Virus record (IMG/VR): IMGVR_UViG_3300014501_000002
Span: 1 to 64,000 of that record
Direction: 5' to 3' (one strand)
Length of the DNA: 64,000 nucleotides
From: a virus
Each line of letters starts with the position of its first letter. The stretch's first letter is position 1. Of this stretch, positions 3,528 through 21,098 are shown in pieces. The position numbers and the translations under genes are program-made. The notes under the pieces are model-generated. The model was not told the DNA's origin and did not search any database. It saw only the letters and a list, made by a program, of their open reading frames with translations.

Positions 3528-3534
3528 GAGACAT

Positions 3535-3720: not shown

Positions 3721-3722
3721 TT

Positions 3723-3911: not shown

Positions 3912-3919
3912 GAGTAGTG

Positions 3920-6599: not shown

Positions 6600-6605
6600 C
6601 TCGGT

Positions 6606-6681
6606 TGCGGGGTAGTGCAGCGGTAGCATACCTGCCTCATAAGCACGGTGGTCGTTGGTTCGAATCCAACTCCCGCAACCA
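6606..6681 (+). tRNA. tRNA with CAT anticodon (Met or Ile2)
   Basis: Acceptor TGCGGGG/TCCCGCA, loop CTCATAA, T-arm GTTGG-TTCGAAT-CCAAC, A73 and CCA; irregular anticodon stem. Confidence 0.85.
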
Positions 6682-6699
6682 ATTTTCTAAAGGAACAAC

Positions 6700-7140
6700 A
6701 TGGCATCCGGCAAGGGCAATAACAACAGCATCCTTTACCTCGGGGCGATTTTCCAGGCAGTGTTTACGGGAGTCCCAAGCTTGCTCGCGAATGCGGGTAG
6801 TCCCTTAACCAACCTCTACGTCAGCTTGTACACAGCGAATCCTGGAGCATCGGGGAACCAGACGTCTAACGAAGCTGCATACACGAGCTACGCTCGCGTG
6901 GCGGTTGCTAGAACAGTCAGCGGATGGTCTATCAGTAGTGAGACAATTGCGAACGTGGCTGCGGTCACCTTCCCGGCTTGCACTGGTGGTACAGAAACAG
7001 AAAATTATGTTGGGATCGGTACGCTCGCGACGCTCGCCGGAAACTTGCTTTGGTTCGGACAGCTTACCACCCCTCTCGCTGTCAGCGCTGGAATTACTCC
7101 ATCATTTGCGATCGGTGCTTTAACGATAACGGAGTCGTAA
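6700..7140 (+). CDS. Small virion structural protein (tail/fibre-associated family)
   Basis: LYVSLYTANPG...NEAAYTSYARVAV...NVAAVTFP...GITPSFAIGALTITE is a common phage structural motif. Confidence 0.8.
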   Translation: MASGKGNNNSILYLGAIFQAVFTGVPSLLANAGSPLTNLYVSLYTANPGASGNQTSNEAAYTSYARVAVARTVSGWSISSETIANVAAVTFPACTGGTETENYVGIGTLATLAGNLLWFGQLTTPLAVSAGITPSFAIGALTITES

Positions 7141-7144
7141 CCCT

Positions 7145-8137
7145 GTGACGATACAGGCGGCCATTACCGGTGTAGGTGTAGTATCCGGAACGCTAGGCGG
7201 GAAAGGATTACTCGCCGATCATATTACAGGAGTCGGCGCCGTCGCCGGAACGTTGGGCGGTCTCGGCAACCTTGCATCAGTCATTGCAGGACACGGTGCG
7301 GTAACAGGAGCGATCTCTACTGCAAACCCCGTGTCTGCCACGATTCATGGATCAGGCTCAGTGCTTGCAGCGCTTTCTGGAACACTGACCGGGAACATGC
7401 TCGGCAACATCTTAGGAATCGGCAGTGTGGTGGGTTTCCCATCATTCACGAAAGAATTTTTTCCACCACGCAATCCAGGTGGGCACGTCAAGAATTACAT
7501 TCTGCGGGATTTCGGTACGATGTATTCCGCTCCCGCATATTTAGCGACTGCTAGTAATGCATTGCAGTTGTTTCACCAAACTACTTTTATTCCCAACGTC
7601 AATCCCGGAACAGTTACACCTCCGCGATGGTCAACTCCGGGAACCCCCGATTCATTTAACTATCAGGGGCGAGTACAGATGCCCGGCGAGGTGATGAGTC
7701 CGCCTGGGACCGGTTCACTCAATGGTAAGATTTACAAAGTCAAAGCTGATGGAATGGTTTTTGTTCCACAGTCGGCGGTCAACGCATCGTTCAACATTGT
7801 CCTGAATCAGAATTACACCTCGTACGGTTACGCAGTTGTTTCAGATACCTTATTCTCTATGACTAGTCAGGTGCCGGTAGCGGCCGGTACTATGGTCGGT
7901 TGGTCTCTGAGTGCAACCTTGGCGGGGAATGGTGTTGGAAACCCGGTGCTAAGTTGCGCAGGCGTTATGTATGTCGACGGTGTTCAGTACGTAGGTAATG
8001 GGTTCTCGAGTCGACTGACTAACCGAGAGCCTATTGTGCAGTTAAGTCTCGGAGTGCAATTCGGTGGAGCGTTAACCGGCCCCGATATGTACCAGGCTTT
8101 CCTCAGCACGTTTCAAATCAGGGAAGATCATTTTTAG
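7145..8137 (+). CDS. Putative virion protein; Gly-rich repeats plus a C-domain paralogous to 18971-19579
   Basis: ITGVGxVxGTL repeats; PGTGSLNGKIYKVKADG resembles PGSNRLNGQVFHILASG. Confidence 0.7.
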   Translation: MTIQAAITGVGVVSGTLGGKGLLADHITGVGAVAGTLGGLGNLASVIAGHGAVTGAISTANPVSATIHGSGSVLAALSGTLTGNMLGNILGIGSVVGFPSFTKEFFPPRNPGGHVKNYILRDFGTMYSAPAYLATASNALQLFHQTTFIPNVNPGTVTPPRWSTPGTPDSFNYQGRVQMPGEVMSPPGTGSLNGKIYKVKADGMVFVPQSAVNASFNIVLNQNYTSYGYAVVSDTLFSMTSQVPVAAGTMVGWSLSATLAGNGVGNPVLSCAGVMYVDGVQYVGNGFSSRLTNREPIVQLSLGVQFGGALTGPDMYQAFLSTFQIREDHF

Positions 8138-8147
8138 ATCGGAACCC

Positions 8148-8909
8148 ATGACAGACTTGTCGCGCGTCACCATAGGTATAAAAACCTTTTTACGCGATGC
8201 GCAACTGTTCAACACTATCGCAGCGATCCGGCAGAGCATGCCGGAGGTGCGCATGATAATCGCGGACGACGGTGAGATGTCTGAAGAGAAGAGGGAAGTT
8301 TATAAGTCCCGAACAGGTTTGATGCACATTTTTCTCCTGCCGTTCGATAGCGGGTTCGGTGCGAAAAGTAACATCATCGCTGGTTGCTGTGGTACCCCGT
8401 ATCTTTTAATTGGGTCAGATGATTTCGATTTTTCTCCAGCACCGGTTCGAGAGGGCATCGAGCGTCTGACTGAAGTATTGGATCATACGCCGCGGCTTAG
8501 TATCGTCAGCGGTCGAGTGAGTAACCGGCCGTACGAGTTCGCTTTGGCTGATGAGGGACATCGAGTTCAGGAGTTCCCCATTGAATATAGCGAAGGTATG
8601 CCTTACTGTCCGTGTGACTTGACGGTGAACTATTCCTTGATTCGGCAAGAAGTATTCCAGAAAGTTAGTTGGGATGACGATGTTAAGATCGGTGGCGGCG
8701 AACACGGCGCATTTTTTGTAGATTGCAAACGCGCGGGTTTCGAAGTAGCGTATGTCCCTGGAGTAAGCATTTCTGAGCAACGAGTTCCTAGCAGTGCGCG
8801 TTACCGGCAGTTTCGCGCGAGAGCTAACAGCCCGGAGCGCCCATGTTTTGATAAGCGCGGCATTACAGAATACATCCTAGGAGATGGCAGAACGGATTAC
8901 AAGAAATGA
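8148..8909 (+). CDS. Glycosyltransferase family 2
   Basis: VTIGIKTFLR...IIADDG...PFDSGFGAKSN...SDDFDF...GGEHGAFF. Confidence 0.88.
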   Translation: MTDLSRVTIGIKTFLRDAQLFNTIAAIRQSMPEVRMIIADDGEMSEEKREVYKSRTGLMHIFLLPFDSGFGAKSNIIAGCCGTPYLLIGSDDFDFSPAPVREGIERLTEVLDHTPRLSIVSGRVSNRPYEFALADEGHRVQEFPIEYSEGMPYCPCDLTVNYSLIRQEVFQKVSWDDDVKIGGGEHGAFFVDCKRAGFEVAYVPGVSISEQRVPSSARYRQFRARANSPERPCFDKRGITEYILGDGRTDYKK

Positions 8910-9574
8910 ACGTCTTGCTTGCTGTCAAGTCATGTCAGCGCGATTTAGATCATGGATGCCACGACATTATTCGCAGCACGTGGGGTAAGGACGTGCACGA
9001 AGCGAACCTTCGGTTCTTCGTCGGTGCCCTCCAGGAGTCAGAGAAGATATCACAAGGCGACGTTTTCTTAAATGTCCCAGATGATTACGACTCCCTGCCT
9101 TTTAAAACGCGTGAGATCTTACGCTGGTCGCTGGTACATAATTACGATTACACTTTTTTGTGCGATACAGATACATTCATTATTCCGAGATTGCTGATGC
9201 GGTGCGGTTTTGAGAAGTACGACATCGCCGCGCGATTTGGTACGATACACCCAGTTGGCGGTCCGATGTTCGACTATACGGACGGCAGAGGCTACCAAGG
9301 GCAGGTTCATCCGTGGCCGAGCGGAGGTTTAGGATACTTCGTATCAAAGAAGGCCGCAGAAATTATTGTGGCCGCTGAAATCAAAGTTTGGGCCGAGGAT
9401 ATGCATGTAGGCCAAGTCTTAGGCGAGCATATTCGAAAAGGCGTGATTTTAGCGCTTGACATTCCCGACTATGAATGCAATACTAGCTGGCACTGGCCCA
9501 GACGGGCTACGGGAAAGGCATACGACCACACGAGCGGATGGATGGAGCGTATGCAGAAAGAACACGGACAATGA
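8906..9574 (+). CDS. GT31-like (beta-1,3-galactosyltransferase-like) glycosyltransferase
   Basis: IRSTWG, DDYDSLPFKT, LCDTDTF (DxD), SGGLGY, AEDMHVG motifs. Confidence 0.85.
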   Translation: MNVLLAVKSCQRDLDHGCHDIIRSTWGKDVHEANLRFFVGALQESEKISQGDVFLNVPDDYDSLPFKTREILRWSLVHNYDYTFLCDTDTFIIPRLLMRCGFEKYDIAARFGTIHPVGGPMFDYTDGRGYQGQVHPWPSGGLGYFVSKKAAEIIVAAEIKVWAEDMHVGQVLGEHIRKGVILALDIPDYECNTSWHWPRRATGKAYDHTSGWMERMQKEHGQ

Positions 9575-10029
9575 GCGTAATTAAATTCAACCTGAAAACA
9601 GTAGAGGGAAGACGGGCATACAACAGGGCGAAGTATATTGCTAATAGAAAGAGGCATAGCGCCCAGATGAAGCTTTGGAGAAAGCGCAATTTTAAAAAAG
9701 TTAAGGTACTCGCAAATAGTTATTACGCAAATAATACAGCCCAGATTCGTCTTCGCATGAGATTGAGAAATGCTAAAAATAAAGCGGAAGTTTTAAGCCA
9801 TTATGGACCGGGTGGGAAACTTCAATGTTCTTGGGATAAATGTAAAGTAGTCGATCCAGATATGCTATCTTTAGATCATATCAAAAATGATGGGGCGGAA
9901 TCTAGACGATCTGGAGAATCTGTCAACGCTTATGGTTATGTAAGAAAACATAATTACCCTTCGGGATATCAAACCCTGTGCCACAACCACCAGTGGAAGA
10001 AGGAATTAATTCGCCGGAGAGCCATGTGA
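9571..10029 (+). CDS. HNH-type homing endonuclease (free-standing)
   Basis: LSLDHIKNDG...YQTLCHNHQ; AT-rich; 4-nt overlaps with both neighbours. Confidence 0.8.
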   Translation: MSVIKFNLKTVEGRRAYNRAKYIANRKRHSAQMKLWRKRNFKKVKVLANSYYANNTAQIRLRMRLRNAKNKAEVLSHYGPGGKLQCSWDKCKVVDPDMLSLDHIKNDGAESRRSGESVNAYGYVRKHNYPSGYQTLCHNHQWKKELIRRRAM

Positions 10030-10868
10030 ACGCAATACTCTTAATCGCGACTGGCTCGATGTATTGGGGTTTTGCGAAAAACCTGATAGTGTCTGCTAGG
10101 CAATATTTCATTCCGCATGATGTGATTTTATTTACAGACAGTCCAGAGCGGTTCGATGTCGCGCACAAGATCGTTATACCTAGTGCCGGATACCCGGAGG
10201 CAACATTAAAACGGTACCACACGTTTCTAGACCAGCGGAGTATTCTAGATCGATACGAAACATTATGGTACGTAGACGCAGATATGAAATTCGTCTACCC
10301 AGTTACGGAAGCGGACGTACTGTCCGATGGGATCACGGCAACGCTCCATCCCGGCTTCGCGGTGGATAGAATACATCCGACCGTCGGCTTTGTAAGCAAA
10401 GTCGGTACTCCGGAGAGACGGAGAGAGTGTACAGCGTTCATTCCGGAGACCGCACAGAGTCTGTATTTCTGCGGCGGATTTAACGGTGGTCGCGCAGAGA
10501 GTTATTTGTGCATGGCCGAGAAGATTCGAGAAAATATTGACATCGATGCAGCGGGCGGCATCATCGCTCACTGGCATGATGAGTCTCACCTGAACCGATA
10601 TCTGTATGACAATCCACCGGCTAGAATTTTGTCGCCGTCGTTTTGTTATCCTGAAGGATACGATGGTGGGTACGGTTGGCCTATAAATGGGCATCGTCCA
10701 ATTCTCCTAGCGCTGAATAAGCCGGGCCATTATGAACCGTCACATTATGTGCCGGAGCCGCTTGTAGCAGTTCAACCGACTCCCGCAATGCCAGCGCGTC
10801 GAGGCGTGGTTCCCGGATCGAAGTCTCGTATACGCTCGGCAATGCAGAAAGGAAACAGATGGTCGTAA
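10026..10868 (+). CDS. Glycosyltransferase family 6 (ABO-type alpha-1,3-GalNAc/Gal transferase)
   Basis: IATGxxY, FTD, VDADM (DxD), LHPGF, ERR, YFCGGFNGG, WHDESHLNRY; GTG start at 10026. Confidence 0.93.
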   Translation: MNAILLIATGSMYWGFAKNLIVSARQYFIPHDVILFTDSPERFDVAHKIVIPSAGYPEATLKRYHTFLDQRSILDRYETLWYVDADMKFVYPVTEADVLSDGITATLHPGFAVDRIHPTVGFVSKVGTPERRRECTAFIPETAQSLYFCGGFNGGRAESYLCMAEKIRENIDIDAAGGIIAHWHDESHLNRYLYDNPPARILSPSFCYPEGYDGGYGWPINGHRPILLALNKPGHYEPSHYVPEPLVAVQPTPAMPARRGVVPGSKSRIRSAMQKGNRWS

Positions 10869-11635
10869 TTAAACTTCTCGGCGGGTTGGGCAATCAGTTG
10901 TTCCAACGCGCGTACGGATTCGCGTTGCATCATCGCGGTTATAATGTCGCGTTCGATAAGTCGGCGTTAATAGAAGGGACACATCGCGAATATTCACTCG
11001 GCGCCTTTAACATGGATGTTTCATTCTCCGAACCAGTCGGGCCGATTGTTTATGAGTCGGGTCTTCAGTTTAACTGGCAGAACCTTCATCCCGCGGACCC
11101 GAGCACAATCGTGGGGTACTTTCAGACTGAGAAGTATTTCCAAGATATCGCGAATTTAATACGAGTGGAATTCACGTTGACCGGTGAGCCTTCTGAACAC
11201 GCGCAAGACTTACGAAGACAGATCAATAATTGCAACAGCATATTTCTTCACGTGCGTCGTCAAGATTACGTTGGCCTACAGCACTTCCATGGTATGCCAG
11301 ATATGGCATATTATAAAGAGGCGCTCGCGCTGATTCAGTCGTATTACGTGGACTCTAAAGTGTTCGTGTTCTCCGACGATCGCGAATGGTGTCTACAGAA
11401 CTTCATGGGGTACGACGTCGTTCAAGGTACAAGCAAGTATGAAGATTTGTGGCTCATGGCTCAGTGTCAACATGCGGTCATTGCGAATTCATCGTTCTCA
11501 TGGTGGGGTGCCTGGCTTGGCGATTGGGGTGATAGCAAATCGCGTCGCATAGTCGTCGCACCGAAACAATGGTTTAATCCGGCAGCAAATGTGGACGCGT
11601 CAGACATCGTCCCGGAAAGATGGCTCAGAATATGA
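10859..11635 (+). CDS. Glycosyltransferase family 11 (alpha-1,2-fucosyl/colitosyltransferase)
   Basis: GGLGNQLFQ, GYFQTEKYF, HVRRQDY, FSDD, ANSSFSWWGAWL. Confidence 0.95.
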   Translation: MVVIKLLGGLGNQLFQRAYGFALHHRGYNVAFDKSALIEGTHREYSLGAFNMDVSFSEPVGPIVYESGLQFNWQNLHPADPSTIVGYFQTEKYFQDIANLIRVEFTLTGEPSEHAQDLRRQINNCNSIFLHVRRQDYVGLQHFHGMPDMAYYKEALALIQSYYVDSKVFVFSDDREWCLQNFMGYDVVQGTSKYEDLWLMAQCQHAVIANSSFSWWGAWLGDWGDSKSRRIVVAPKQWFNPAANVDASDIVPERWLRI

Positions 11636-13197
11636 TCGTCCAAGCATTCGTTCCAAATTGGCCCGGCCCGAAGCAACACGCTAAGGAAGTCGCCGCGATC
11701 ATCGCGCCGCACTGCCCGGTCACAATTCTGGACGACCCGAACGATTACTTTAACGCGCAGTGGGAGAAGGCCCGCGCACAGTTCACGGGAGATATCTTGT
11801 TGTGGGTTATGGCGGATGTGAAACCTCCGCTCGATTTTGGCGCCATGTTCGAGGAAGGCGTACGCTTAATGTCTCGCGCTCCCGTGGGTTGGTATGCCCC
11901 GGACGTTGCCTGGACAAGCTATATTTATGACCCGCAGAATCTATCTCGGGTCGAGGAACATATCTACGAAGTTCCGAATACAGATTCGTTGTGTTTCATG
12001 ATTCGTAAAGATGTGATTGACAACATGCCACACCTCGATCCTGCCACGTGTTTCATGTGGGGTATGGATTTGACGGCGATCGGCACCGCGCGTCTGATGG
12101 GTTTAAAAGTTGTTCGCGACTATCGGTTCAAGGCGCAGCATCCAAACCAGACGGGTTACGAGATTGAGAAGGCGGGACGCGGCATGATCCCTATGTTTAA
12201 GACGTACCCGATTGCGTTGCAGCGGGAGATTGGTAAGCTTGAAATCGAGACGCGTCGGTTACGCAAGCCGTTTTGGAAAGACAAGCGAATCACAGTCACC
12301 GGCGGCAATGGCTTCCTAGGGAACCACGTCGTCGCAGCGCTGCATAGCAAAGGTGCAGAAGTATCGGTTCCGCATCTCGTAGAGTATGACTTACGAAACC
12401 GTGCAGATGTGGATCGCATGTATCAGAATTTTCGCCCGACTATCGTCATTAACTTAGCCGCGGCTGTTGGTGGACTCGGCGCGAACATCGCGAGTCCGGG
12501 TCGTTTCTTTTACGACAATCTTATGATGGGCATGCATCTCATGGATGCGGGCTGTCAATTCGGTATAGACAAGTTTGTGCAGATGGGCAGCGCGTGTGAG
12601 TATCCGAAAGACGCGCCGGTTCCATTGGTAGAGGAAGATGTTTGGAACGGGTACCCCGAGCCCAGCAACGCTCCGTACGGCATCGCTAAGCGCGCGCTGT
12701 TGACCATGGGGGACGCCTACAGAACACAGTACGGCATGAATGTAATACACATTCTCTCGACCAATCTTTACGGGCCGGGAGACAACTTCAATCTTGAAAC
12801 GTCGCATGTTATTTCCGCGCTGATAAACAAGTGTGTCACGGCGAGAGACGCGGGCTCCCCAAGCATTTCGATATGGGGCACTGGCGCTGCCACGCGCGAC
12901 TTCTTGTTTGTGCGGGACGCGGCATCAGGAATAGTTCTTTCGACAGAGTTATGGAATAATCCGGCGCCGGTCAATTTAGGTTCCGGTAGGGAAGTATCGA
13001 TACTCGAGATTGCAGAGAAGATAAAACAGCTGACCGGTTTTCAAGGCGCGCTGTCATGGGACCACTCGAAACCAGACGGGCAGCCGCGCAGATTTCTCGA
13101 CACGAGTCGAGCGTTATCGTTTGGATTCGTATCCGGTACGCCCCTAGAAGCTGGGCTGAAAGAAACTATTTCGTGTTTCGAAGAAAAATTGCGATGA
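11632..13197 (+). CDS. fcl: Fusion: N-terminal GT-A-like domain plus GDP-L-fucose/colitose synthase (Fcl/ColC-like epimerase-reductase)
   Basis: C-domain has TGGNGFLG, AAAVGGLGAN, GSACEYP, YGIAK, NLYGPGDNF, SHV and WGTG...RDFL. The ~215-aa N-domain (ADV, WGMD motifs) is only tentatively GT-like. Confidence 0.88.
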   Translation: MIVQAFVPNWPGPKQHAKEVAAIIAPHCPVTILDDPNDYFNAQWEKARAQFTGDILLWVMADVKPPLDFGAMFEEGVRLMSRAPVGWYAPDVAWTSYIYDPQNLSRVEEHIYEVPNTDSLCFMIRKDVIDNMPHLDPATCFMWGMDLTAIGTARLMGLKVVRDYRFKAQHPNQTGYEIEKAGRGMIPMFKTYPIALQREIGKLEIETRRLRKPFWKDKRITVTGGNGFLGNHVVAALHSKGAEVSVPHLVEYDLRNRADVDRMYQNFRPTIVINLAAAVGGLGANIASPGRFFYDNLMMGMHLMDAGCQFGIDKFVQMGSACEYPKDAPVPLVEEDVWNGYPEPSNAPYGIAKRALLTMGDAYRTQYGMNVIHILSTNLYGPGDNFNLETSHVISALINKCVTARDAGSPSISIWGTGAATRDFLFVRDAASGIVLSTELWNNPAPVNLGSGREVSILEIAEKIKQLTGFQGALSWDHSKPDGQPRRFLDTSRALSFGFVSGTPLEAGLKETISCFEEKLR

Positions 13198-13724
13198 AAA
13201 ACTTCTATGTGTATCTCTGGCTTAGAGAAGACAACACTCCTTATTACGTGGGTAAGGGTAGTGGGAATAGGGCTTACATTAGACATCGCGTTGGGCGATG
13301 CCCAGAAGGCCGAGTATTAATTCGGGATTGTTTTAGCGAGAAAGAAGCGTTTGAGATGGAGAAGTTTTTAATCGAGCTTTACGGTAGGAAGGATTTAGGA
13401 ACGGGCTGCCTTAGAAATTATTCATCAGGAGGCATCGGCGGATCGGCAAACCCGTCAGAAGAAGTCCGTTATAAGATGGGCGCGGCTAGAAGAGGGGTTG
13501 CGCCGTCCGCATCAACTCGTCGTAAGATAAGTTGTGCTAATGCGGGAAGGAAACATCCACATAAGTCTCATCCAGTTTCACAAGAAACCCGCAGTAAAAT
13601 AAGTAAGTATAGAAAGGGTCGCGAAAATTCTTACGCAACGCGAATTAAAATGAGCGACGCTAAAAAAGGTAAGCCGTGGTCGGAAGCAAGGTGGCGGGCT
13701 GAGCGTGAAAGGTTATCCCAATGA
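13194..13724 (+). CDS. GIY-YIG homing endonuclease with NUMOD3-like repeats
   Basis: FYVYLW...PYYVGKG...R...E...GRKDLGTGCLRN; ETRSKIS repeats. Confidence 0.85.
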   Translation: MKNFYVYLWLREDNTPYYVGKGSGNRAYIRHRVGRCPEGRVLIRDCFSEKEAFEMEKFLIELYGRKDLGTGCLRNYSSGGIGGSANPSEEVRYKMGAARRGVAPSASTRRKISCANAGRKHPHKSHPVSQETRSKISKYRKGRENSYATRIKMSDAKKGKPWSEARWRAERERLSQ

Positions 13725-14905
13725 GAAAAATCACGTTGGGACATTTGGACATTTCGGAGCGTGGTAAGGCCTACGTCAACGACGCCCTGGACCACAACCG
13801 ATTGTCGCGAGGCCCGTATACGGATAGATTCGAGAGCGAGTTTTCTCGGCTGCACGGATGCAAGCACGGTCTGTTTATGAACAGCGGCACGTCGGCGCTT
13901 CAAGTAGCGCTGGTCGCGTTGAAAGAAGTTCACGGTTACGCGGACGGAGACGAAGTTATCGTCCCGGCCACGACATTCATTGCGACAAGTAACATCGTGA
14001 TCCAGAACAACCTTACGCCGGTGTTCGTAGATGTCGACCCGTTTACGTTCAACATCGACCCTAGAAAGATCGAAGAGAAGCTTACATCGAAGACGCGGTG
14101 CATTATCCCGGTTCATTTGTTCGGGTTGCCCGCGGAGATGAAGTGGATTAGAGATATAGCAAAGCATCGGGGCCTTCAGATTATTGAGGATTCCTGTGAG
14201 ACTATGTTCGCTACTTTAGACGGACAGTCAGTCGGAAGTTTTGGGGACATCGGCTGCTTTAGTACATATGTGGCCCATTTAATTGTGGGCGGTGTGGGCG
14301 GACTCGTTACGACCAATGACCCTAAACTGAACGAGATTTGCAAGAGCCTGATGCAGCACGGTCGGGATAGCATTTATACGAACATAGACCAGGACGACAA
14401 CGCGGACGACGCACTGCTTAAACAGATGATCGAGCGCCGCTACTCGTTCGAGCGTGTAGGATACTCTTACCGTGCGACGGAACTCGAAGCCGCAGTCGCT
14501 CTGAGCGAACTCGAACGCTGGGAAGAGAATATTGGGCGCCGCAGGTTTTCCGCCGCCCGCCTGACGGACTTATTAAAAGATTTGAGCGGTGTACTGCAGC
14601 TGCCAGTAACGCCAGTTGGGTTCGAACACTCTTACATGATGTTCCCAATGGTGTTCTACGAAGGCTACGAGCGCAATCCATTTTTATGGTATCTTGAGAA
14701 GAACGGTATTGAGACTCGTTACCTGTTCCCGTTGCTGACGCAGCCGGTGTACAGGACGTTGTTCCCTGGACAAGCGGAGAAGTATCCCATAGCGCAGTAC
14801 CTCGCTGAGCACGGATTTTTTATCGGCATGCATCAGGGACTCTTAACAGAAGATATTGAATACATCTCAGAAGTAATCCACGACTATTTCAAAAAGAGTA
14901 AATAA
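13721..14905 (+). CDS. DegT/DnrJ/EryC1/StrS PLP enzyme, ColD-like (His at the catalytic Lys position)
   Basis: NSGTSAL, PATTFIAT, PVHLFG, IEDSCE; FSTYVAHLIVGGVGG instead of FSFxxxKxxTTGEGG. Confidence 0.9.
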   Translation: MRKITLGHLDISERGKAYVNDALDHNRLSRGPYTDRFESEFSRLHGCKHGLFMNSGTSALQVALVALKEVHGYADGDEVIVPATTFIATSNIVIQNNLTPVFVDVDPFTFNIDPRKIEEKLTSKTRCIIPVHLFGLPAEMKWIRDIAKHRGLQIIEDSCETMFATLDGQSVGSFGDIGCFSTYVAHLIVGGVGGLVTTNDPKLNEICKSLMQHGRDSIYTNIDQDDNADDALLKQMIERRYSFERVGYSYRATELEAAVALSELERWEENIGRRRFSAARLTDLLKDLSGVLQLPVTPVGFEHSYMMFPMVFYEGYERNPFLWYLEKNGIETRYLFPLLTQPVYRTLFPGQAEKYPIAQYLAEHGFFIGMHQGLLTEDIEYISEVIHDYFKKSK

Positions 14906-15777
14906 TGGCTAAGGTGTCAGTTATCGTACCCCTCTACAATCAAGCCAAGTTCGTCACGCAGACATTGGATAGTATCATGGCGCAGACGTACGAAGACTTC
15001 GAAGTGATTGTGGTGAACGACGCCAGTACGGATGATAGTTTATCCGTTGTCACTGAGTACGCGAAGAACTTCCAGAAGATAAAGATTGTCAACAATCCTG
15101 TCAACCGTGGATTACCCGCCACACGAAATATCGCTATAAGTCATTCGGTAGGGGATTTCATACTTCCATTGGATTCAGATGACCGGATCGATCCGGACTT
15201 TCTGCAGAAGACGACGGCGCGGATGGTCGACGGAGTCGCGATAGTCGGAACGTGGATGCACATCGAGCCCGATGATATCACTCGACGTAACTCGCATGAG
15301 GTTCAGCAGGCCGGTGCATTCGGGTCGTGCTATCCAATCTACGCGCCCACGCGTGAGCAGATTCTAACCGGCAATAGTTTGGCTATATGCTCTTTGATTC
15401 GCCGCGAAGCCCTCGACCAGGCGGGCCAGTATCCAGAAGATTTTAAGAATGGTTCCGAGGATTGGTGTTTGTGGTGCTCGATCATATGCAGCGGTAGATG
15501 GAGAGTAGTGGTGGTTCCGGAGTATCTGTTTCATTATAGAGTCCATCCGGATTCTATGTGCCGGTCATCCACGATGGCCCCGTTCCCGGTGACACGAGCC
15601 CGCATCAGAACTAAGTTTGGTTGGACGGTTGAAGAGGCCGCGCGAGAGCAAGAGCGGTTGAATCCGAAGCCTATCCCGCCGCCCCCGCAGCCACCTCCCG
15701 GAATTTATCGAGTGAGTGATAGAGAACGTTTTCGAGCCCAACTCAAGGCGTACAAAGAGAAATACAATGTCCAATGA
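14905..15777 (+). CDS. Glycosyltransferase family 2
   Basis: VSVIVPLYN, VNDASTD, NRGLPATRN, LDSDD, SEDW. Confidence 0.93.
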   Translation: MAKVSVIVPLYNQAKFVTQTLDSIMAQTYEDFEVIVVNDASTDDSLSVVTEYAKNFQKIKIVNNPVNRGLPATRNIAISHSVGDFILPLDSDDRIDPDFLQKTTARMVDGVAIVGTWMHIEPDDITRRNSHEVQQAGAFGSCYPIYAPTREQILTGNSLAICSLIRREALDQAGQYPEDFKNGSEDWCLWCSIICSGRWRVVVVPEYLFHYRVHPDSMCRSSTMAPFPVTRARIRTKFGWTVEEAAREQERLNPKPIPPPPQPPPGIYRVSDRERFRAQLKAYKEKYNVQ

Positions 15778-16486
15778 TGTCGTTCAAGGATTATGGATCG
15801 GCGGCGATCTATCAAACATGGAGCGGTTGTCCATTAACTCATTTTTACAGAACGGACACGAGTACCATCTTTATATATACGATGAATTAGGGCACATTCC
15901 TGACGGCGTAATTGTTAAGGACGCCAACGAAATTATAGACGGGAAGGATATCTTCCTAGTTCGCGGAGGGTATTCAAGCTTCTCGGATTTCTTTCGTTGG
16001 AAGTTGGTGCTAGATCGTGGCAACTGGTGGGTGGACACGGATGCTGTGTGTTTACGGCCGTTGGATTTCATATCAGATCATGTGTTCATCGGTGGAAAAG
16101 GTTTGCCCGGCTCGGATGATTGTATCACGAGCGGGTTGTTTAAAGCGCCCGCGCAGTCAGAGATTATGAAGTGGGGTTGGGAACAGTGTCAGAAAATGAA
16201 TCCACTGACGATGGCGTGGGGCCAAGCTGGCCCGCCGCTGTTTACCGAGGCCGTGCACAAGTTCGGTTTGTCAGTTGGAGCCACCGTCGTTCCGGGTAGC
16301 TTATTCTTCCCGGTGTTTTACACGAAGGCGCCCGGCGCATTCATCGGTCCGAATACATCAGATGATTATGGCAACGCGTATTCCGTGCATCTGTTCAATG
16401 AAATTTGGCGCTTGGCTGGGACCGACAAGAATGCGGTCTACCCAAATACGTCCGCGTACGAAAAACTAAAGAAGAGGTTCCAATGA
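15767..16486 (+). CDS. GT32-like DxD glycosyltransferase (alpha-1,4/1,6 type)
   Basis: LWIG, SINSF, FSDFFRW, GNWWVDTD, GP.LFT. Confidence 0.85.
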   Translation: MSNDVVQGLWIGGDLSNMERLSINSFLQNGHEYHLYIYDELGHIPDGVIVKDANEIIDGKDIFLVRGGYSSFSDFFRWKLVLDRGNWWVDTDAVCLRPLDFISDHVFIGGKGLPGSDDCITSGLFKAPAQSEIMKWGWEQCQKMNPLTMAWGQAGPPLFTEAVHKFGLSVGATVVPGSLFFPVFYTKAPGAFIGPNTSDDYGNAYSVHLFNEIWRLAGTDKNAVYPNTSAYEKLKKRFQ

Positions 16487-17157
16487 TCGGAACGCTTTAT
16501 AGATACGCGCATCCTTACGATTCAGCCCAATTTCTTTATTGTGGGCAGGGGTCAGATAGAGATAGGCATCATCGTTCTGGACACAGTTCATTTGGGCGAC
16601 GTTTTAAAGAGAAATTTCCCGATATAGAATTACCAGAACCTATAAGAGAACAAATCGAGGTTTCTTCTCCGATAGATTTAAACGAGGAAGAAACAATTTG
16701 GATTTTTCGATATCATACGTGGTGGCGGTATCCAAATGGAATGAATATAACTTTACCTGGTTCGGTCGACTATAAAAGTCAGGGTCTTATTACCGGTCGT
16801 CTAAATGCTAAAAATGGGCGTATGCAGAGAATTTCTACTCCGGAAACCTGTGCTAAAGGCGGTCGAATCGGCGGTCGCAGAAGAATAGAATTGCACGGCA
16901 ACCCACTGACGCCTGAGAGTTGTGCGAAAGGCGGTCGCATAACAGGCCGCATAAATGGGCGTAGGGCTTTTGAGAATAACACAGGAATATTCGCTTTAGA
17001 TTTCGATATAAACGCAGCTAGATGTAAAGCTGGACGCAAGAATTTCGAGAGTGGACACATGAAAAATCTCGGGAATTCAGGAATAGGTCTCTGTTTTCGA
17101 TGGAATATTAAACGTGGGAAACCTTGTGTTTGCGGTAAACACGGGAGAAAGGCGTAA
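16483..17157 (+). CDS. Divergent GIY-YIG-like homing endonuclease
   Basis: GTLYRY...FLYCGQG...R..H; NGMN; TPETCAKGGRI repeats; Cys-rich tail; AT-rich. Confidence 0.65.
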   Translation: MIGTLYRYAHPYDSAQFLYCGQGSDRDRHHRSGHSSFGRRFKEKFPDIELPEPIREQIEVSSPIDLNEEETIWIFRYHTWWRYPNGMNITLPGSVDYKSQGLITGRLNAKNGRMQRISTPETCAKGGRIGGRRRIELHGNPLTPESCAKGGRITGRINGRRAFENNTGIFALDFDINAARCKAGRKNFESGHMKNLGNSGIGLCFRWNIKRGKPCVCGKHGRKA

Positions 17158-17160
17158 GAA

Positions 17161-18126
17161 ATGAAAGCTTTGGTAACTGGTTGTACGGGCCAGGACGGAT
17201 CTTATTTAGCGGAACTATTACTAGAAAAGGGTTATGAAGTTCATGGATTGGTGCGGAGACATAGTTCTGTTAGTACGGATCGTATTGATCATATTTTTAG
17301 CAAACTACATCTACATTATGGTGACCTTTCTGATTCCGGATCGCTAAATAAAATACTCCATGAAATACGTCCGGATGAGATTTATTCTCTTGGCGCACAA
17401 TCGCACGTTAGAGTATCGTTTGAGTGCCCAGAATATACGTCTGATGTGGACGCTTTAGGTGTTTTACGTTTGTTAGAAGCGATGCAGTTAAATTGCCCGG
17501 AAGCGAGATTTTATCAAGCATCGTCAAGTGAGATGTTTGGCGCAGCCCCAGCACCACAAACGGAGACCACGCCATTTTATCCGCGAAGCCCATACGGCAT
17601 CGCCAAGCAGTTCGCTTATTGGACCACAGTCAACTACCGTGAGGCATACGGTATGTTCGCGTGTAACGGGATATTATTCAACCACGAGAGTCCGCGCCGC
17701 GGCGAGACGTTTGTTACTCGGAAGATAACCAAAGCCGCCGTACGCATAAAAGCGGGATTGCAGGATAGTTTAGCGCTGGGTAATCTAGACGCTAAGAGAG
17801 ATTGGGGATTCGCCGGGGATTATGTTGAAGCGATGTGGCTCATGATGCAGCAACCGGTGCCCGATGATTTTGTCATAGCGACCGGCGCCACACATTCAGT
17901 TCGAGAATTCCTAGATGAAACATTTGGGTACCTAGGCATGGATTGGAAGCCGTATGTAAAGATCGACCCGAAGTATTTCCGTCCCGCAGAAGTCGATTTA
18001 TTGCAGGGCGATGCTAGCAAGGCGCGGCGTGTTCTAGGCTGGGAGCCGAAAGTAAATTTCAAACAATTGGTTAGGCTGATGGTCGACCATGAGACAGAAG
18101 GCAGTCGTTTGCATCCCCACGTTTAA
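17161..18126 (+). CDS. gmd: GDP-mannose 4,6-dehydratase
   Basis: [66 protein letters not shown]. Confidence 0.98.
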
Positions 18127-18847
18127 CCGCCCGGAATTCCTCGCTCTCGCACTCGAAAAGATTGCGCGGGCATCCGATGTTCCGGAAGATATCCGGATAT
18201 TTCTGGACACCTGTTCTGACGCACGGCTCGATGAAGTAGAATACGTCCGTGATACGTATATGCCCACAGCAGATATATTTCGCGCGCGTCTTCATGTCAT
18301 TGCCCCGAGCGGTACATGGAACATCTTGAATTCCTTGAAACAGGGATTTGAGACCGGCGCAGAGTTCGTCTTTTTTATCGAAGAAGACGTTATGATAAAG
18401 CCAGAATTCTTTAATGAGCATCTGAGGATGCAGTCCGAAGGAGACTACTTCGTGACTTGCGGTCGTAAGTTGCGAAACCGCGACGACAGTTACTATAGCA
18501 ATCCCGGCACCTGTTACCGAAGCGATAAGCTGTCTCTTGTTGTTCCACATATCAACATGAAGTATTTCGCGGACCAAGCGGGGTATCTTGAACGCCAGTT
18601 TCCGCATATGGACGACGCAGGCATTATGGATGACGGCCTGATTCGTCGCGTCATGCAGTCCATCGGCGCCCGAGCGAAGTGTGCGGTACCAGCTATAGCA
18701 GCACACCAAGGGTTCCATTATTTTGCGAAGTTCGCGCAGTATCAGACAGTTGGATCGATTGCAGAACGGATAGAGCAACTTCGCGTTATGCTAGCGAAGG
18801 TCGACCCAACCGATCGGTACACTCGAGACTTCGAAACACTTTTGTAG
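18089..18847 (+). CDS. GT-A fold glycosyltransferase (GT2/GT13-like)
   Basis: [26 protein letters not shown] motifs. Confidence 0.8.
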
Positions 18848-18970
18848 AAACATGTGAGTGATAGCACGTTCAAATCTACTCATATGGACTTAGACTAAAA
18901 TCTGAGTCTTTCATTAAAGCATCCATGCCGGGTGATCCTCGTCACTGGGTGTTAATAGGAAATAGAAACC

Positions 18971-19579
18971 ATGGCACAAGTAATCACGAATTATAGCATC
19001 AACGGCGCAACTCCGTCTACCGTCGGTGGAACCGGAATTCTGCCCAAGGCATTCCCGAACCTCCCCGGCCCTTCGATCGGGGTTAACCGTACGACTCCTT
19101 CTTTCCTGAATGCGACCACTCTTTCGAGTGCAGTCGGGCAGCTTGAAGTTCCCGGCTCAAACCGGTTGAACGGACAGGTGTTCCACATTCTGGCTTCTGG
19201 AAACTACGAAGTCGGCGTCGGCGGCGCGTGCCCGAGCTTCTCTCTCGCTCTGTTCGCGAACACTGGAACTCGGACGGCCCCAATCACTACGAAGATCGTT
19301 GCTCCTGCGGCTTTTACCGCGCAGAACCTCGACGCGGTGTTTTATCCTTGGTACATTGACGTCCTGTTGTACGGCGAAACTTTGTCCGGGACAGTGACGG
19401 GTTCTTACACCGGTCAAGTTGACGGCGTAGCTTTCTCGAAGACGACCCTGGATGTTAACCTCGCCGGTGTCAACTTCTCCAACGTCGAACCTGCTTTCGG
19501 TTTGGTGTTGGCGGTCACGTTCAGCGTTAGCGAGCCTGGAAACAGCGCAAACGCGTACGCGTTTCAAGTCGTAGCATAA
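18971..19579 (+). CDS. Putative virion structural (decoration-like) beta-rich protein
   Basis: AGGA RBS; Ser/Thr/Gly/Val-rich; paralogous to the C-domain of 7145-8137; followed by a hairpin. Confidence 0.7.
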   Translation: MAQVITNYSINGATPSTVGGTGILPKAFPNLPGPSIGVNRTTPSFLNATTLSSAVGQLEVPGSNRLNGQVFHILASGNYEVGVGGACPSFSLALFANTGTRTAPITTKIVAPAAFTAQNLDAVFYPWYIDVLLYGETLSGTVTGSYTGQVDGVAFSKTTLDVNLAGVNFSNVEPAFGLVLAVTFSVSEPGNSANAYAFQVVA

Positions 19580-19629: not shown

Positions 19630-20028
19630 ATGATCGCGGTATCTCAGTTCTGGCACGAATTCAATTTCTACGGCAAGACAATTGGTACTGCGTTCACGTT
19701 CCTGTCGGTGCTAACATATTTGTATAAGAAGTTGGTTTCTCCAGTGGTTAAGAAGGTAGTGAACATTAATGACACCGTGTCATCACTAGCGTTGAATCAT
19801 TTCCCGCATTTACAAAATGCTCTTGCGTCACAAGAAATTCAACTCAAAGAAATTAAGACCAGTGTTGTAGAGTACGGAGCACGTTTAGAAAATACGAATA
19901 AGGCAGTCGAGACTCTGCATCAGTCGTTCACAAACCATATTGAGAACGAGTCAAGGAAGAAACGAAATGCCATTCGAGTCAACCGCGCAACAAGGGTACA
20001 TGCACGCGCACCCCGAGATTCTCGGTAA
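19630..20028 (+). CDS. Single-TM plus coiled-coil protein (holin/XhlA-like)
   Basis: One hydrophobic helix followed by heptad repeats. Confidence 0.55.
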   Translation: MIAVSQFWHEFNFYGKTIGTAFTFLSVLTYLYKKLVSPVVKKVVNINDTVSSLALNHFPHLQNALASQEIQLKEIKTSVVEYGARLENTNKAVETLHQSFTNHIENESRKKRNAIRVNRATRVHARAPRDSR

Positions 20029-20477: not shown

Positions 20478-21098
20478 ATGAAAATAGTCGCGTATTTCGT
20501 CAGACATGGCGACACGGACATGAATGATGACAATGTGTTCCGGGGCGACCTGGACATCGGCATCAATAAAGATGGGCAGGAACAAGCCAAGGAGTTAGTT
20601 CCATATTTTAAAGGACGCAAGTTTAGCGCTGCGTTCAACAGCACTCGGAAGAGGACGAAGCAGACTCTGGCCCCTCTCCTAAGTTCGAAAGGCATGGATT
20701 CCGTCACTTCCGACAGATTAGATTCGTTGGATACCGGTGACTTGGCCGGTAAGCCGAAGAGCGACGAGAATCTCGAGATTCTGAAGTATTATCGAAAACA
20801 TCCAGACGAAAAAATTCCCGGTGGGGAAAAGGTTCAAGACTGGAGAAATCGAGTAGACTCTGAACTGCTTGCGATTATTCGAAGGGGAGAAGAAGCTTCA
20901 TCTCCCACGATTGCGGGGATTCACGGGTCGGTGATCAAGGAATTATCTAGGCTCCTGACCGGAGACATGAACAAAGTAGGCGTTGATCCGGGCGGCGTAT
21001 TAGGAGTGTTCAAAACACCCAACGGTTATGTTTTAAGTGCATTGATTAAGCCGAAAGACGGGAAAGGTAACTACGACGACGATCGGCAAGGAAGCTAG
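20478..21098 (+). CDS. Histidine phosphatase family protein
   Basis: VRHGDT motif, RTKQT, PGGE, HG.VI. Confidence 0.9.
   Translation: MKIVAYFVRHGDTDMNDDNVFRGDLDIGINKDGQEQAKELVPYFKGRKFSAAFNSTRKRTKQTLAPLLSSKGMDSVTSDRLDSLDTGDLAGKPKSDENLEILKYYRKHPDEKIPGGEKVQDWRNRVDSELLAIIRRGEEASSPTIAGIHGSVIKELSRLLTGDMNKVGVDPGGVLGVFKTPNGYVLSALIKPKDGKGNYDDDRQGS

Follow-up and report, generated by a model that had tools for sequence, protein, structure and literature searches.

The window analysed here is a 64,000-nucleotide stretch of the complete 111.5-kb genome, with terminal repeats (DTR), of an uncultured soil/peat phage. Among cultured phages, Tunturiibacter phage Tunturi_3 is closest to it by TerL (26%). Positions 8148–18847 form a single co-oriented gene chain, on the plus strand like all genes given here from 5448 to 19579, that holds eight glycosyltransferase (GT) domains (three GT2-like, GT31, GT6, GT11, GT32-like and a GT-A domain fused to Fcl), along with Gmd, an Fcl/ColC-type reductase and a His-type (ColD-like) 3-dehydratase. 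Assignment with Pfam/NCBIfam profiles and their cut-offs bore out the gene content and coordinates of the original prediction, made from the letters of the window; its GT families also stood, but its count of six clear GTs plus a fused one did not, as there are seven stand-alone GTs and one fused domain. As predicted, the genes are co-oriented and mostly coupled by overlap: from 6700 to 18847 they overlap or lie ≤10 nt apart, so the GTs almost certainly share a transcript with the gp80-type fibre-monomer gene that opens this stretch. A promoter and terminator scan gave an outcome no better than shuffles.

The enzymes of GDP-sugar supply suggest that the phage could make its own donors. Gmd (GDP-mannose 4,6-dehydratase, 17161–18126; TIGR01472, 503 bits, cut-off 415) would, by homology, convert host GDP-mannose to GDP-4-keto-6-deoxymannose. 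The fusion protein (11620–13197; assigned by NF047922 Fcl, an AF2 model and Foldseek) joins an N-terminal GT-A glycosyltransferase domain (about residues 1–220; AF2 pLDDT 92.4, with Foldseek GT-A matches), whose presence had been correctly anticipated, to a C-terminal GDP-L-fucose synthase/ColC-type SDR (residues 221–522; 279 bits against NF047922, under the cut-off of 500). Its counterpart in lineage L053 is two separate ORFs, and the fused GT-A domain belongs to a family with 68 stand-alone homologues, its closest Atlas clusters being mostly viral. Homology further suggests that the reductase would turn the Gmd product into GDP-L-fucose or, should the ColD-like enzyme act first, yield GDP-L-colitose; the fused GT-A domain probably also uses the GDP-sugar produced by its partner. 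The ColD-like protein (13721–14905) is a PLP/PMP-dependent sugar 3-dehydratase of DegT fold (Pfam DegT, 316 bits, 3.7e-94) with His186 in place of the Schiff-base Lys in an alignment to perosamine synthase (3bn1), and inspection of its Cys positions found no E1 Fe-S-type Cys cluster.

The stand-alone GTs begin with GT2a (8148–8909), a probable GT-A enzyme (Pfam GT2 E 0.008, under the cut-off; SDDFD motif) that evolves at a dN/dS of 0.06 relative to L056 and has no counterpart in an alternative form of the island, variant B. It is followed by a GT31-like protein of the beta-1,3-Gal/GlcNAc-transferase family (8906–9574; Pfam Galactosyl_T, 34.9 bits, cut-off 23, 1.8e-8; DTD motif) and by a GT6 retaining alpha-1,3-glycosyltransferase of the ABO/BoGT6a family (10026–10868; Pfam GT6, 73.8 bits, cut-off 25, 1.4e-20), which also matched phrog_3317, found its best PDB match in BoGT6a (4ayj, 3e-34) and has DAD as its DXD motif, along with WHDESH, the conserved context of the catalytic Glu. 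Next comes a member of the GT11 alpha-1,2-fucosyl/colitosyl-transferase family (10859–11635; Pfam GT11, 86.2 bits, cut-off 23.9, 3e-24; phrog_2644, 2e-53) with HVRRQDY as motif I; donors in this family include GDP-Fuc and GDP-Col (PMC11987014). Beyond the donor genes lie GT2b (14905–15777), a clear GT2 with GT-A fold (Pfam GT2, 125 bits, 2.7e-36; DSD motif), a GT32-like protein (15767–16486) with a WWVDTDAV (DXD) motif, a dN/dS of 0.10 and weak HMM support (Pfam Gb3_synth 7e-4, under the cut-off), and, at the end of the island, GT2c (18089–18847), a GNT-I/MGAT2-like GT-A enzyme (Pfam GT2, 25.6 bits, cut-off 23.3, 1.3e-5; EED motif) whose closest Atlas clusters are mostly viral.

Family chemistry and the genes that are optional in relatives suggest that these eight soluble GT domains would assemble an oligosaccharide stepwise: the GT31-type enzyme may build a beta-1,3-linked Gal acceptor, GT11 may cap it with alpha-1,2 Fuc or Col, and GT6 may add an alpha-1,3 hexose or HexNAc to give an ABO(H)-like end. 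Variant B keeps GT31 and GT11 and lacks GT6, which fits GT6 as the last-acting enzyme. Overall, the original prediction's view of the island as a soluble, self-contained line for glycan assembly that supplies its own GDP-sugars is well supported.

Interspersed among the glycan genes are three ORFs of homing-endonuclease type, at 9571, 13194 and 16483. The first (9571–10029; 152 amino acids) is HNH/endonuclease VII-like by motif alone (CxxC...DH...N...CHNH), HMM profile searches having given no support for an endonuclease family; it is a clean insertion that is not in the nearest relative, and its homologues adjoin GT2c homologues in L144 and L145. The second (13194–13724), a free-standing GIY-YIG/NUMOD3 homing endonuclease (NUMOD3; phrog_314 homing endonuclease, 9.5e-15), is likewise a clean insertion missing from the nearest relative and separates the Fcl and ColD genes. 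The third (16483–17157; 224 amino acids) resembles GIY-YIG enzymes by motif, as a putative mobile endonuclease, and had no family matches in profile searches; it shares 99% nucleotide identity with L056, and its location varies (beside TerL in L026; in L053, GT2b and GT32 flank it). Mobile endonuclease-type ORFs in a variable hot spot are what a decaying or hitch-hiking accessory island without current function might contain, but we regard such decay as scarcely credible: every island frame is open and the motifs are intact, three lineages have kept the island at 54–100% amino acid identity, and its GTs are under purifying selection (dN/dS 0.06–0.17, at dS values of 0.6–2 that are saturating).

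Two genes of fibre type adjoin the island upstream, where the original prediction had placed probable structural genes. A gene for a DUF3494/ice-binding-like beta-helix protein (5448–6599; 383 amino acids; Pfam Ice_binding, 3e-33) is the upstream neighbour, separated by a tRNA-Met (CAT) gene (6606–6681; ARAGORN) from the gene for a gp80-like chain-type tail-fibre monomer (6700–7140; 146 amino acids; Pfam PF23140 Gp80, 1e-21; phrog_240), the first of the gap-free chain. Gp80-type proteins are the fibre monomers of GP4, VP1 and A1002 (PMC13730344); within this phage family the gp80-like gene is confined to island-bearing lineages. Behind it lies a fibre-like protein (7145–8137; 330 amino acids) with a Gly/Ser/Thr-rich N-terminal repeat region and a C-terminal domain (about residues 163–328) homologous to the family of the gene at 18971 (hhalign probability 84%, E 8e-6); its stop codon falls 10 nt upstream of GT2a. 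On the downstream side, the gene at 18971 (18971–19579) is structural by inference only. It encodes a 202-amino-acid jelly-roll protein conserved family-wide (23 homologues; AF2 pLDDT 87), with middling fold matches (VIA Z 8.0 to 8ke9 and others) and BFVD matches to tailspike and fibre C-terminal domains; because the predicted fold resembles phage receptor-binding and lectin domains, it is a candidate fibre or receptor-binding protein (RBP) and a candidate glycan acceptor.

Synteny in related phages, which the original prediction had proposed comparing, ties the island to these fibre genes. The cassette of gp80-like gene, 7145 and island occurs in three lineages (G000, L051/L056 and L052-54), with island variants in two related lineages accompanied each time by a gp80-type tail-fibre monomer and a fibre-like paralogue, and is missing as a whole from L009, L010 and L044, where the DUF3494 gene directly abuts the 18971 homologue. 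Among relatives, fibre genes and island thus come and go together. Upstream of 18971 the genome has a variable hot spot for accessory genes, occupied in relatives by proteases, Zn-ribbon proteins or small ORFs; five lineages have a GT immediately before 18971 (GT2c in G000, L051, L015 and L017, GT31 in L053), and GT2c homologues also occur away from 18971-like genes (L141, L144 and L145). GT2c, 18971 and the gene at 19630 diverge together (75, 71 and 62% amino acid identity, with flanks at 94–100%).

Judging by gene context, we tentatively take the phage's own virion (fibre-type) protein or proteins as the single most likely acceptor, with the gp80-like protein at 6700, the protein at 7145 and the adjacent jelly-roll protein at 18971 as leading candidates; glycosylation would then take place in the cytoplasm before assembly. 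The GT block is chained to fibre-type genes, which makes the phage particle the likeliest target, and this reading is further favoured by gain and loss as a unit and by the complete genome, in which no initiating phosphotransferase (PGT), Wzx, Wzy/ligase (WaaL) or GtrA was found (the predicted lack of flippase, Wzy, Gtr and DNA-hydroxymethylase genes in the window holds genome-wide). Chlorovirus capsid glycans, made using viral Gmd and Fcl-type enzymes, offer one precedent. Reported mycobacteriophage capsid and tail glycosylation offers another (Freeman 2023, cited in PMC12619734). Two arguments of the original prediction for this acceptor are weak. The Ser/Thr content of the virion proteins (17–25%) is nothing unusual among beta-rich tail and fibre proteins, and the predicted lack of transmembrane (TM) helices, although confirmed (no 19-residue window of an island protein exceeds a Kyte-Doolittle value of 1.62), does not discriminate because O-antigen GTs are likewise soluble. 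Several observations sit less easily with a virion acceptor: the combination of GT31, GT11 and GT6 with colitose is a classic one in O-antigen synthesis, gp80-like proteins are also common in phages without any of these GTs, some GT2c homologues lie away from 18971-like genes, the structural role of 18971 draws on middling fold matches (Z 8), the island occupies an accessory hot spot and an EPS synthase operon (GT2 matches) is encoded elsewhere in the genome.

It is also quite possible, if less probable, that the island remodels the host surface, its soluble GTs acting at the cytoplasmic face on host undecaprenyl-linked O-antigen, EPS or core intermediates while the host supplies initiation, flipping, polymerisation and ligation, to leave a Fuc/Col-capped glycan on the infected or lysogenised cell. 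Receptor masking, superinfection exclusion, fewer progeny lost on debris or biofilm change could follow. GTs that build O-units of O-antigen or EPS on undecaprenyl carriers generally lack TM segments, as do those of the island, and GT31, GT11 and GT6 with Gmd, ColD and ColC are typical of O-antigen synthesis. WbgN, a GT11 colitosyltransferase, modifies glycolipids (PMC11987014), and the conventional reading of the homologous clusters in cyanophages is that of LPS genes altering the cell surface (PMC1079782; PMC12801897). The EPS operon and the moron-like hot spot suit this explanation too, and the co-divergence of GT2c with the RBP-like 18971 would equally fit a pair of receptor-modifying and receptor-binding proteins. 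However, the complete genome lacks an initiating transferase, flippase, polymerase, ligase or Gtr component, each of the eight phage GT domains would need to mesh with a host pathway, the gene chain links the GTs to fibre genes instead of early or lysogeny genes, and the closest Atlas clusters of two GT domains are mostly viral, not bacterial.

Sequence alone does not fix the identity of the acceptor, and the EPS synthase operon could point to yet another phage or host target (for example whatever the EPS synthase makes, a surface protein of secreted or PEP-CTERM type, or a small molecule or oligosaccharide in solution), which we consider unlikely: the EPS genes lie ~80 kb from the island on the opposite strand, the island co-travels with fibre genes rather than with them and, to our knowledge, EPS systems of the synthase-dependent kind work without sets of soluble GTs that act stepwise. 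Less probable still is glycosylation of phage DNA, with oligosaccharides on hypermodified bases such as the 5hmC of T-even phages or those of MT/TET phages. We know of no phage DNA-modifying GTs of the GT6, GT11 or GT31 types or with GDP-Fuc/Col donors, and no thymidylate-synthase-type hydroxymethylase, C5 cytosine methyltransferase or TGT/DpdA was found in the complete genome (a Tet_JBP search gave no match, nor did its positive control), although phage GTs, multi-GT sets included, can hypermodify DNA (bioRxiv 10.1101/2023.12.21.572611).

The island can be set beside several known systems. Gtr serotype conversion in temperate phages (GtrA/GtrB/Gtr-type) is likewise phage-encoded glycan modification but is membrane-embedded and periplasmic and uses lipid carriers, whereas here GtrA is absent and the island proteins have no TM helix. 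Bacterial ABO(H)-like and colitose O-antigen pathways (E. coli O86 WbnI/WbnK, E. coli O55 ColD/ColC/WbgN) and Bacteroides ovatus BoGT6a use the same enzyme families, with the same predicted order (beta-1,3-Gal acceptor, then GT11 Fuc/Col, then GT6 alpha-1,3 sugar) and, in ColD, the same His-for-Lys signature; unlike them, the phage encodes no initiating PGT, Wzx, Wzy or WaaL, its genes sit in a fibre operon and its GT6 has DAD, as in metal-dependent vertebrate enzymes, rather than the NAN of BoGT6a. Chloroviruses and giant viruses glycosylate capsids or fibrils with virus-encoded Gmd, GDP-4-keto-6-deoxymannose epimerase/reductase and soluble GTs, independently of host membrane pathways; there too the virus supplies GDP-deoxyhexose and soluble GTs for its own structural proteins, but these viruses infect eukaryotes, and their GTs and capsids are unrelated. 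Mycobacteriophage virion O-glycosylation (Che8, Corndog and Myrna), as papers citing Freeman et al. 2023 report it, resembles the proposed system in its phage-encoded soluble GTs, lack of membrane machinery and cytoplasmic glycosylation of virion proteins; it differs in its actinobacterial hosts, its small number of GTs, the reported lack of a GDP-sugar pathway of its own and the glycans demonstrated at the C-termini of capsid and tail-tube proteins, whereas the candidate acceptors here are fibre/RBP-like proteins.

The closest known systems are the 'LPS' or cell-wall-modification clusters of T4-like ocean cyanophages (P-SSM2, a Prochlorococcus phage, 193.4–205.5 kb; ACG-2014f, a Synechococcus phage, 153–163 kb; and S-SCSM2R), and the novelty implied by the original prediction was overstated, as homologous clusters are already known in cyanomyoviruses. 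These are likewise co-oriented, overlapping genes for soluble enzymes without export genes. P-SSM2 shares four enzymes (Gmd, 61% identity; Fcl, 34%; GT11, 40%; GT6, 35%), and ACG-2014f follows nearly the same logic (Gmd, 63%; Fcl-type SDR, 37%; GT11, 34%; GT6, 35%), including a His-type ColD-like gene (30%) annotated there only as hypothetical. The island differs in its GT-A::Fcl fusion, GT31 and GT32-like members and three homing-endonuclease-type ORFs, in having no GT1, GT25 or methyltransferase genes, and in its carrier, an unrelated 111-kb soil/peat phage in which it is chained to gp80-type fibre genes, whereas the cyanophage clusters lie among metabolic genes (hli, psbA, talC).

The virus record is complete (111,514 bp with direct terminal repeats, the window being its first 64 kb), and Pfam/NCBIfam profiles, motifs and gene order bore out the original prediction of a co-oriented glycan island holding glycosyltransferases (GTs), Gmd, Fcl and a ColD-like enzyme. 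With gene starts refined by inspection of overlaps and RBS, the island forms part of a 12-kb, 16-gene chain whose first two genes are of fibre type (a gp80-like gene starting at 6700 and a fibre-like gene at 7145-8137). Every gene in 8148-18847 lies on the + strand, in the order GT2a (8148-8909), a GT31-like gene (8906-9574), a 152-aa ORF (9571-10029), GT6 (10026-10868), GT11 (10859-11635), a 525-aa GT-A::Fcl fusion (11620-13197), a GIY-YIG/NUMOD3 endonuclease (13194-13724), a DegT-fold, ColD-like enzyme (13721-14905), GT2b (14905-15777), a GT32-like gene (15767-16486), a 224-aa ORF (16483-17157), Gmd (17161-18126) and GT2c (18089-18847). Pfam/NCBIfam assignments exceeded curated cut-offs for GT31, GT6, GT11, GT2b, GT2c, DegT and Gmd; GT2a and the GT32-like protein scored below cut-off and carry DXD-type motifs. 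All junctions from the start of the gp80-like gene (6700) to the end of GT2c (18847) are overlaps or gaps of at most 10 nt, and the chain is predicted to be translationally coupled; a promoter and terminator scan gave the same counts as shuffled sequences. Because dN/dS was 0.06-0.17 for all GTs relative to the nearest relative (locus L056), selection maintains the GTs. Two tRNA genes also occur here, Pro-CGG (4366-4442) just upstream of the fibre and island block and Met-CAT (6606-6681) inside it.

The island encodes a predicted donor supply. Gmd (TIGR01472, 503 bits against a cut-off of 415; Pfam GDP_Man_Dehyd, 5.8e-137) would by homology convert host GDP-mannose to GDP-4-keto-6-deoxymannose, from which an Fcl-type SDR would make GDP-L-fucose; were the ColD-like dehydratase to act first, the same kind of reductase would instead yield GDP-L-colitose. 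The DegT-fold enzyme has His at the position of the Schiff-base Lys (FSTYVAH, aligned to FSFFGNK of perosamine synthase 3bn1) and five scattered Cys, with no Fe-S Cys cluster. Because its bit score against E1 (171) slightly exceeded that against E. coli ColD (144), its GDP substrate was judged from the neighbouring genes: next to Gmd and Fcl, 13721-14905 fits a ColD-type GDP-4-keto-6-deoxymannose 3-dehydratase, and an E1-type (CDP-hexose) dehydrase was rejected, given the missing Fe-S Cys cluster and the GDP-pathway enzymes alongside. The Fcl/ColC part of the fusion (NF047922 GDP-L-fucose synthase, 279 bits against an equivalog cut-off of 500; Pfam Epimerase, 1e-51) is a predicted 3,5-epimerase-4-reductase whose substrate may be the 6-deoxy intermediate, its 3,6-dideoxy counterpart or both.

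For the N-terminal residues 1-220 of the fusion, sequence searches of Pfam, PHROG and PDB matched nothing, and a protein-language search led mostly to viral clusters, including Glyco_tranf_2_5. An AlphaFold model of this domain, built with a homologue alignment as input (pLDDT 92.4, pTM 0.91), matched GT-A enzymes at TM scores of 0.5-0.67 (polypeptide GalNAc-transferases, B4GALNT1, the WrtF fucosyltransferase and STIV A197), so that what had been described as a GT-like domain fused to Fcl is, according to the model, a genuine GT-A domain. In metagenomes, 68 stand-alone homologues of ~216 aa were found. The domain and Fcl form one fused ORF in the window phage and in L051 (which with L056 makes up the lineage closest to the window phage); in L053, of a more diverged set of loci, the domain has an ORF of its own (220 aa, 10013-10675) that overlaps the Fcl ORF (10560-11588). 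A transferase seems to have become fused recently to a GDP-sugar-making enzyme, and this partnership suggests that the GT-A domain may use the product of Fcl.

Family chemistry allows a tentative outline of the glycan. GT6 (PF03414, 73.8 bits against a cut-off of 25) aligned to BoGT6a across the whole catalytic domain (3e-34), with a DAD motif where BoGT6a has NAN and with the context of the catalytic Glu (WHDESH) kept. In GT11 (PF01531, 86.2 bits against a cut-off of 23.9), HVRRQDY fits the HxRRxD motif I, and GDP-Col as well as GDP-Fuc can serve as donor for the GT11 enzymes WbgN and FUT2, with Gal-beta-1,3-GlcNAc as acceptor (PMC11987014). The GT31-type enzyme would supply a beta-1,3-Gal acceptor, to which GT11 would then add alpha-1,2 Fuc or Col and GT6 an alpha-1,3 sugar; building the inner part of the glycan and attaching the first sugar would fall to the GT32-like enzyme and the other four GT-A domains. 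The diverged loci L052-54, which lack GT6 but have GT31 and GT11, fit a last step by GT6. Standard lectins and antibodies can detect the end-structure predicted in this way, Fuc/Col-alpha-1,2-Gal capped by an alpha-1,3 sugar.

TerL and portal searches placed the phage in a large uncultured family of 47 loci (portal identity 59-92%), the nearest cultured phage being Tunturiibacter phage Tunturi_3 (TerL identity 26%). Cultured phages held no DNA near-identical to the island and gave no tblastn match to the protein of 18971-19579, the first gene downstream of it. Host hints from a contig scan came from a 158.8-kb Bryobacteraceae MAG contig (L059, DATASJ010000081.1; TerL/portal 34-37%), a faint hint of an Acidobacteriota host. 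A 36.7-kb contig from an 'uncultured archaeon' bin (L058, CABMCB010000038.1; portal 65%) encodes the 18971, HisPhos, TerL and portal core and appears to be a phage contig put in an archaeon bin.

Among the family loci, the island was found in three lineages only: the window genome, L051/L056 (TerL 95%, the same gene order minus two endonuclease insertions) and L052-54. The last (about 54-78% amino-acid identity) keep GT31, GT11, GT-A, Fcl, ColD, GT2b, GT32 and Gmd, lack GT2a, GT6 and GT2c, and carry, immediately upstream of 18971, a second gene of the GT31 family. Synteny partly favoured the virion reading: in all three lineages the gp80-like and 7145 proteins precede the island, though its site is variable. 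In L009, L010 and L044 the DUF3494 gene (5448-6599 in the window) adjoins the 18971 homologue, with no island, gp80-like or 7145 gene between; in L015 and L017 a GT2c homologue (48-50%) lies directly upstream of 18971; and in other loci this slot is taken by small ORFs, by proteins with a Zn ribbon or by proteases of the trypsin-like or papain-like kind. Because relatives hold such other cargo there, the site upstream of 18971 is a variable accessory hot spot. The slot of L007 has both a trypsin-like and a papain-like protease (777-1565, 3216-4037), and proteins of ~260-290 aa with a terminal zinc ribbon occur in L017 (3480-4253), L015 (2457-3293) and L038 (3713-4582). A constant tie of gp80-like genes to GTs was rejected, as most of 80 fetched gp80-like loci from other phages lack these GTs, and so was a constant pairing of GT2c with an 18971-like gene, which fails in L141, L144 and L145.

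Three ORFs of the island, at 9571, 13194 and 16483, are mobile-element-type genes and not glycan enzymes. That at 13194-13724, with its NUMOD3 repeats, matched phrog_314 (homing endonuclease, 9.5e-15). The ORF at 9571-10029 has an HNH/EndoVII-like pattern (CxxC...DH...N...CHNH) and that at 16483-17157 a GIY-YIG-like motif; Pfam, NCBIfam, PHROGs and PDB gave no HMM support for either call, and it is by motif and mobility that the two look like HNH and GIY-YIG genes, respectively. Both 9571-10029 and 13194-13724 are clean insertions between overlapping GT or sugar genes, the flanking genes being directly adjacent in L056. The place of 16483-17157 differs among relatives: in L026 its counterpart neighbours terminase, in L053 it separates GT2b from GT32. 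Relatives of 9571-10029 also adjoin GT2c homologues in two ~100-kb phage contigs (L144, L145; 5579-5932), and L052-54 have an Endonuclease VII-type ORF at another position (L053 12748-13275). Identity to L056 changes sharply along the island: ColD (13721-14905 against 13130-14308) is ~100% identical in DNA (dS 0.012), and the 224-aa ORF (16483-17157 against 15883-16554) is 99% identical with neighbours at 75-92%, whereas GTs have dS of 0.6-2.0 and those neighbouring ColD and the 224-aa ORF are 75-86% identical. This mosaic suggests recent, endonuclease-driven gene conversion within the island.

Fibre- or RBP-type genes appear to flank the island, with family-level support for that role only for the gp80-like gene. 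Its product matched PF23140 (1e-21), a family that in GP4, VP1 and A1002 forms the monomer of chain-like tail fibres docking on the nozzle (PMC13730344). The claim that the island lies between structural genes held on this side; on the other it comes down to middling fold matches of the protein of 18971-19579. This 202-aa protein is conserved family-wide, ~4-5 kb upstream of TerL, and Pfam found nothing in 23 of its homologues. Its AlphaFold model (pLDDT 87) is a jelly-roll sandwich whose best VIA matches, receptor-binding or carbohydrate-binding domains of phages, were middling (Z 8.0 for the CBD of the A-1(L) short fibre, with lectins and the RBD of the PM2 spike also among them), with only low-TM, legume-lectin-type Foldseek matches in the PDB and, in BFVD, matches to tailspike and fibre C-terminal domains; from the model we infer an RBP-type protein. 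By hhalign (probability 84%, E 8e-6), the 7145 protein has in its C-terminal half a homologue of the 18971 family; the gp80-like protein was rejected as a further relative (probability 0.05%). The N-terminus of 7145 consists of ~100 residues of Gly/Ser/Thr-rich repeats of ~11 residues each, and the 18971 homologues of L048 (5903-6583) and L026 (2013-2690) contain an insertion of similar, Gly/Ser-rich composition; such stretches might act as flexible linkers or as sites of glycosylation. GT2c, 18971 and 19630 co-diverge, at 75, 71 and 62% amino-acid identity between flanks at 94-100%. The most diverged of these, 19630-20028 (62%), encodes 132 aa, hydrophobic in a stretch at the N-terminus and otherwise resembling a coiled coil. 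A histidine-phosphatase gene (branch 1, CobC/phosphoglycerate-mutase-like) at 20478-21098, whose product is 100% identical to the closest relative's copy, lies between 18971 and terminase in most relatives.

What the glycan is attached to was weighed against this background. The original prediction, in which soluble GTs with their own donors act on Ser/Thr-rich virion proteins, stood in part. Ser/Thr content failed as a marker of acceptors and was dropped: it is 17-25% in the fibre and tail proteins against a median of 12%, which is ordinary for beta-rich tail proteins. The lack of membrane helices, flippase, Wzy, GtrA and a DNA base-hydroxymethylase noted at the outset stood: island proteins contain no convincing membrane helix (maximum Kyte-Doolittle, 19-residue window, <=1.62), and the complete genome held no initiating transferase (Bac_transf PF02397, WecA-type PF00953), Wzx (PF01943), Wzy_C/ligase (PF04932) or GtrA (PF04138), with the controls detected in each search. 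The island thus lacks the initiation, flippase and polymerase/ligase genes that accompany GTs in Wzx/Wzy O-antigen or capsule clusters, functions that the host could supply, and, having neither GtrA nor membrane helices, it does not resemble a Gtr serotype-conversion system (GtrA, GtrB, membrane Gtr). These missing genes count against the main rival, that the island enzymes remodel lipid-linked surface glycans of the host, which we consider a serious if somewhat doubtful possibility: O-unit GTs are likewise soluble, the chemistry is that of a classic O-antigen, homologous cyanophage clusters have traditionally been so read (PMC1079782), and the same genome has EPS genes. In a Pfam sweep of the 127 other ORFs, the 25 families listed (43 were matched) included a single additional GT2, that of an EPS synthase encoded near 101 kb on the opposite strand. 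Glycosylation of phage DNA is very improbable, as the complete genome has no thymidylate-synthase-type hydroxymethylase (PF00303) or C5 DNA methylase (PF00145) by searches whose controls were detected; TGT/DpdA was also missing from the complete genome, and a Tet_JBP search of it gave no match, its control being likewise silent.

We tentatively favour virion proteins, foremost those of fibre type encoded in this operon, as the acceptor, at a little short of an even chance. This preference rests on the almost certain co-transcription with fibre genes, a cassette that relatives gain or lose whole, recurrent adjacency of GTs and 18971 together with the GT2c/18971/19630 co-divergence, the missing export genes, and nearest clusters that are mostly viral for two GT domains; as in mycobacteriophage-type systems, the GTs are continuous with the virion operon, the structural role of the gp80-like protein coming from PF23140. 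Counting against it are the equal solubility of O-unit GTs and the hot-spot location. More specifically, and rather unlikely in its entirety, the phage's own fibres (gp80-like, 7145 and 18971) would bear a colitose- or fucose-capped, histo-blood-group-like oligosaccharide, assembled wholly in the cytoplasm by eight GT domains from donors supplied with the aid of the GT-A::Fcl fusion. If so, in a permafrost or peat phage that also displays ice-binding-type domains, the role of the glycan might lie in adhesion, hydration, protection from freezing or shielding from proteases, and not in evading immunity; to our knowledge, no phage of a Gram-negative-type soil host has so far been known to have a glycosylated tail fibre. 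Glycosylated fibres would change the view of host recognition and environmental stability in soil phages, and a host-surface target would make the island a lytic phage's version of serotype conversion.

Large islands of soluble, glycan-building enzymes have turned up repeatedly in phages, including cyanomyoviruses, huge phages and soil phages; we know of no such island outside mycobacteriophages whose acceptor has been determined. The present one is tractable, being compact, with all enzyme families recognisable and three small fibre-type candidate acceptors in the same operon, and one 13-kb fragment holding enzymes and candidate acceptors could separate virion coating from host remodelling for the whole island class. 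Like it, P-SSM2 (193.4-205.5 kb) has Gmd (61%), Fcl (34%), GT2, GT11 (40%) and GT6 (35%) in one co-oriented block, and ACG-2014f has Gmd (63%), an Fcl-type enzyme (37%), GT11 (34%) and GT6 (35%). The island thus has the composition of a cyanomyovirus 'LPS'-type cluster (Gmd, Fcl-type SDR, GT2, GT11 and GT6 without export genes), with homologues at 30-63%. Between the Fcl-type epimerase and GT11 of ACG-2014f lies a DegT-fold 'hypothetical protein' (L148 8914-10107, KJ019148.1 155026-156219) with 30% identity to the ColD-like enzyme and His at the Lys position, and this cultured cyanophage probably has an unrecognised GDP-colitose branch. S-SCSM2R has 13 GTs (PMC12801897). Given these cyanomyovirus clusters, neither the Gmd/ColD/ColC plus GT11/GT6 logic nor a large soluble GT island is new for phages; what sets the present island apart from them is its phage lineage and habitat, its coupling to a gp80-type fibre gene, its GT-A::Fcl fusion and its load of homing endonucleases.
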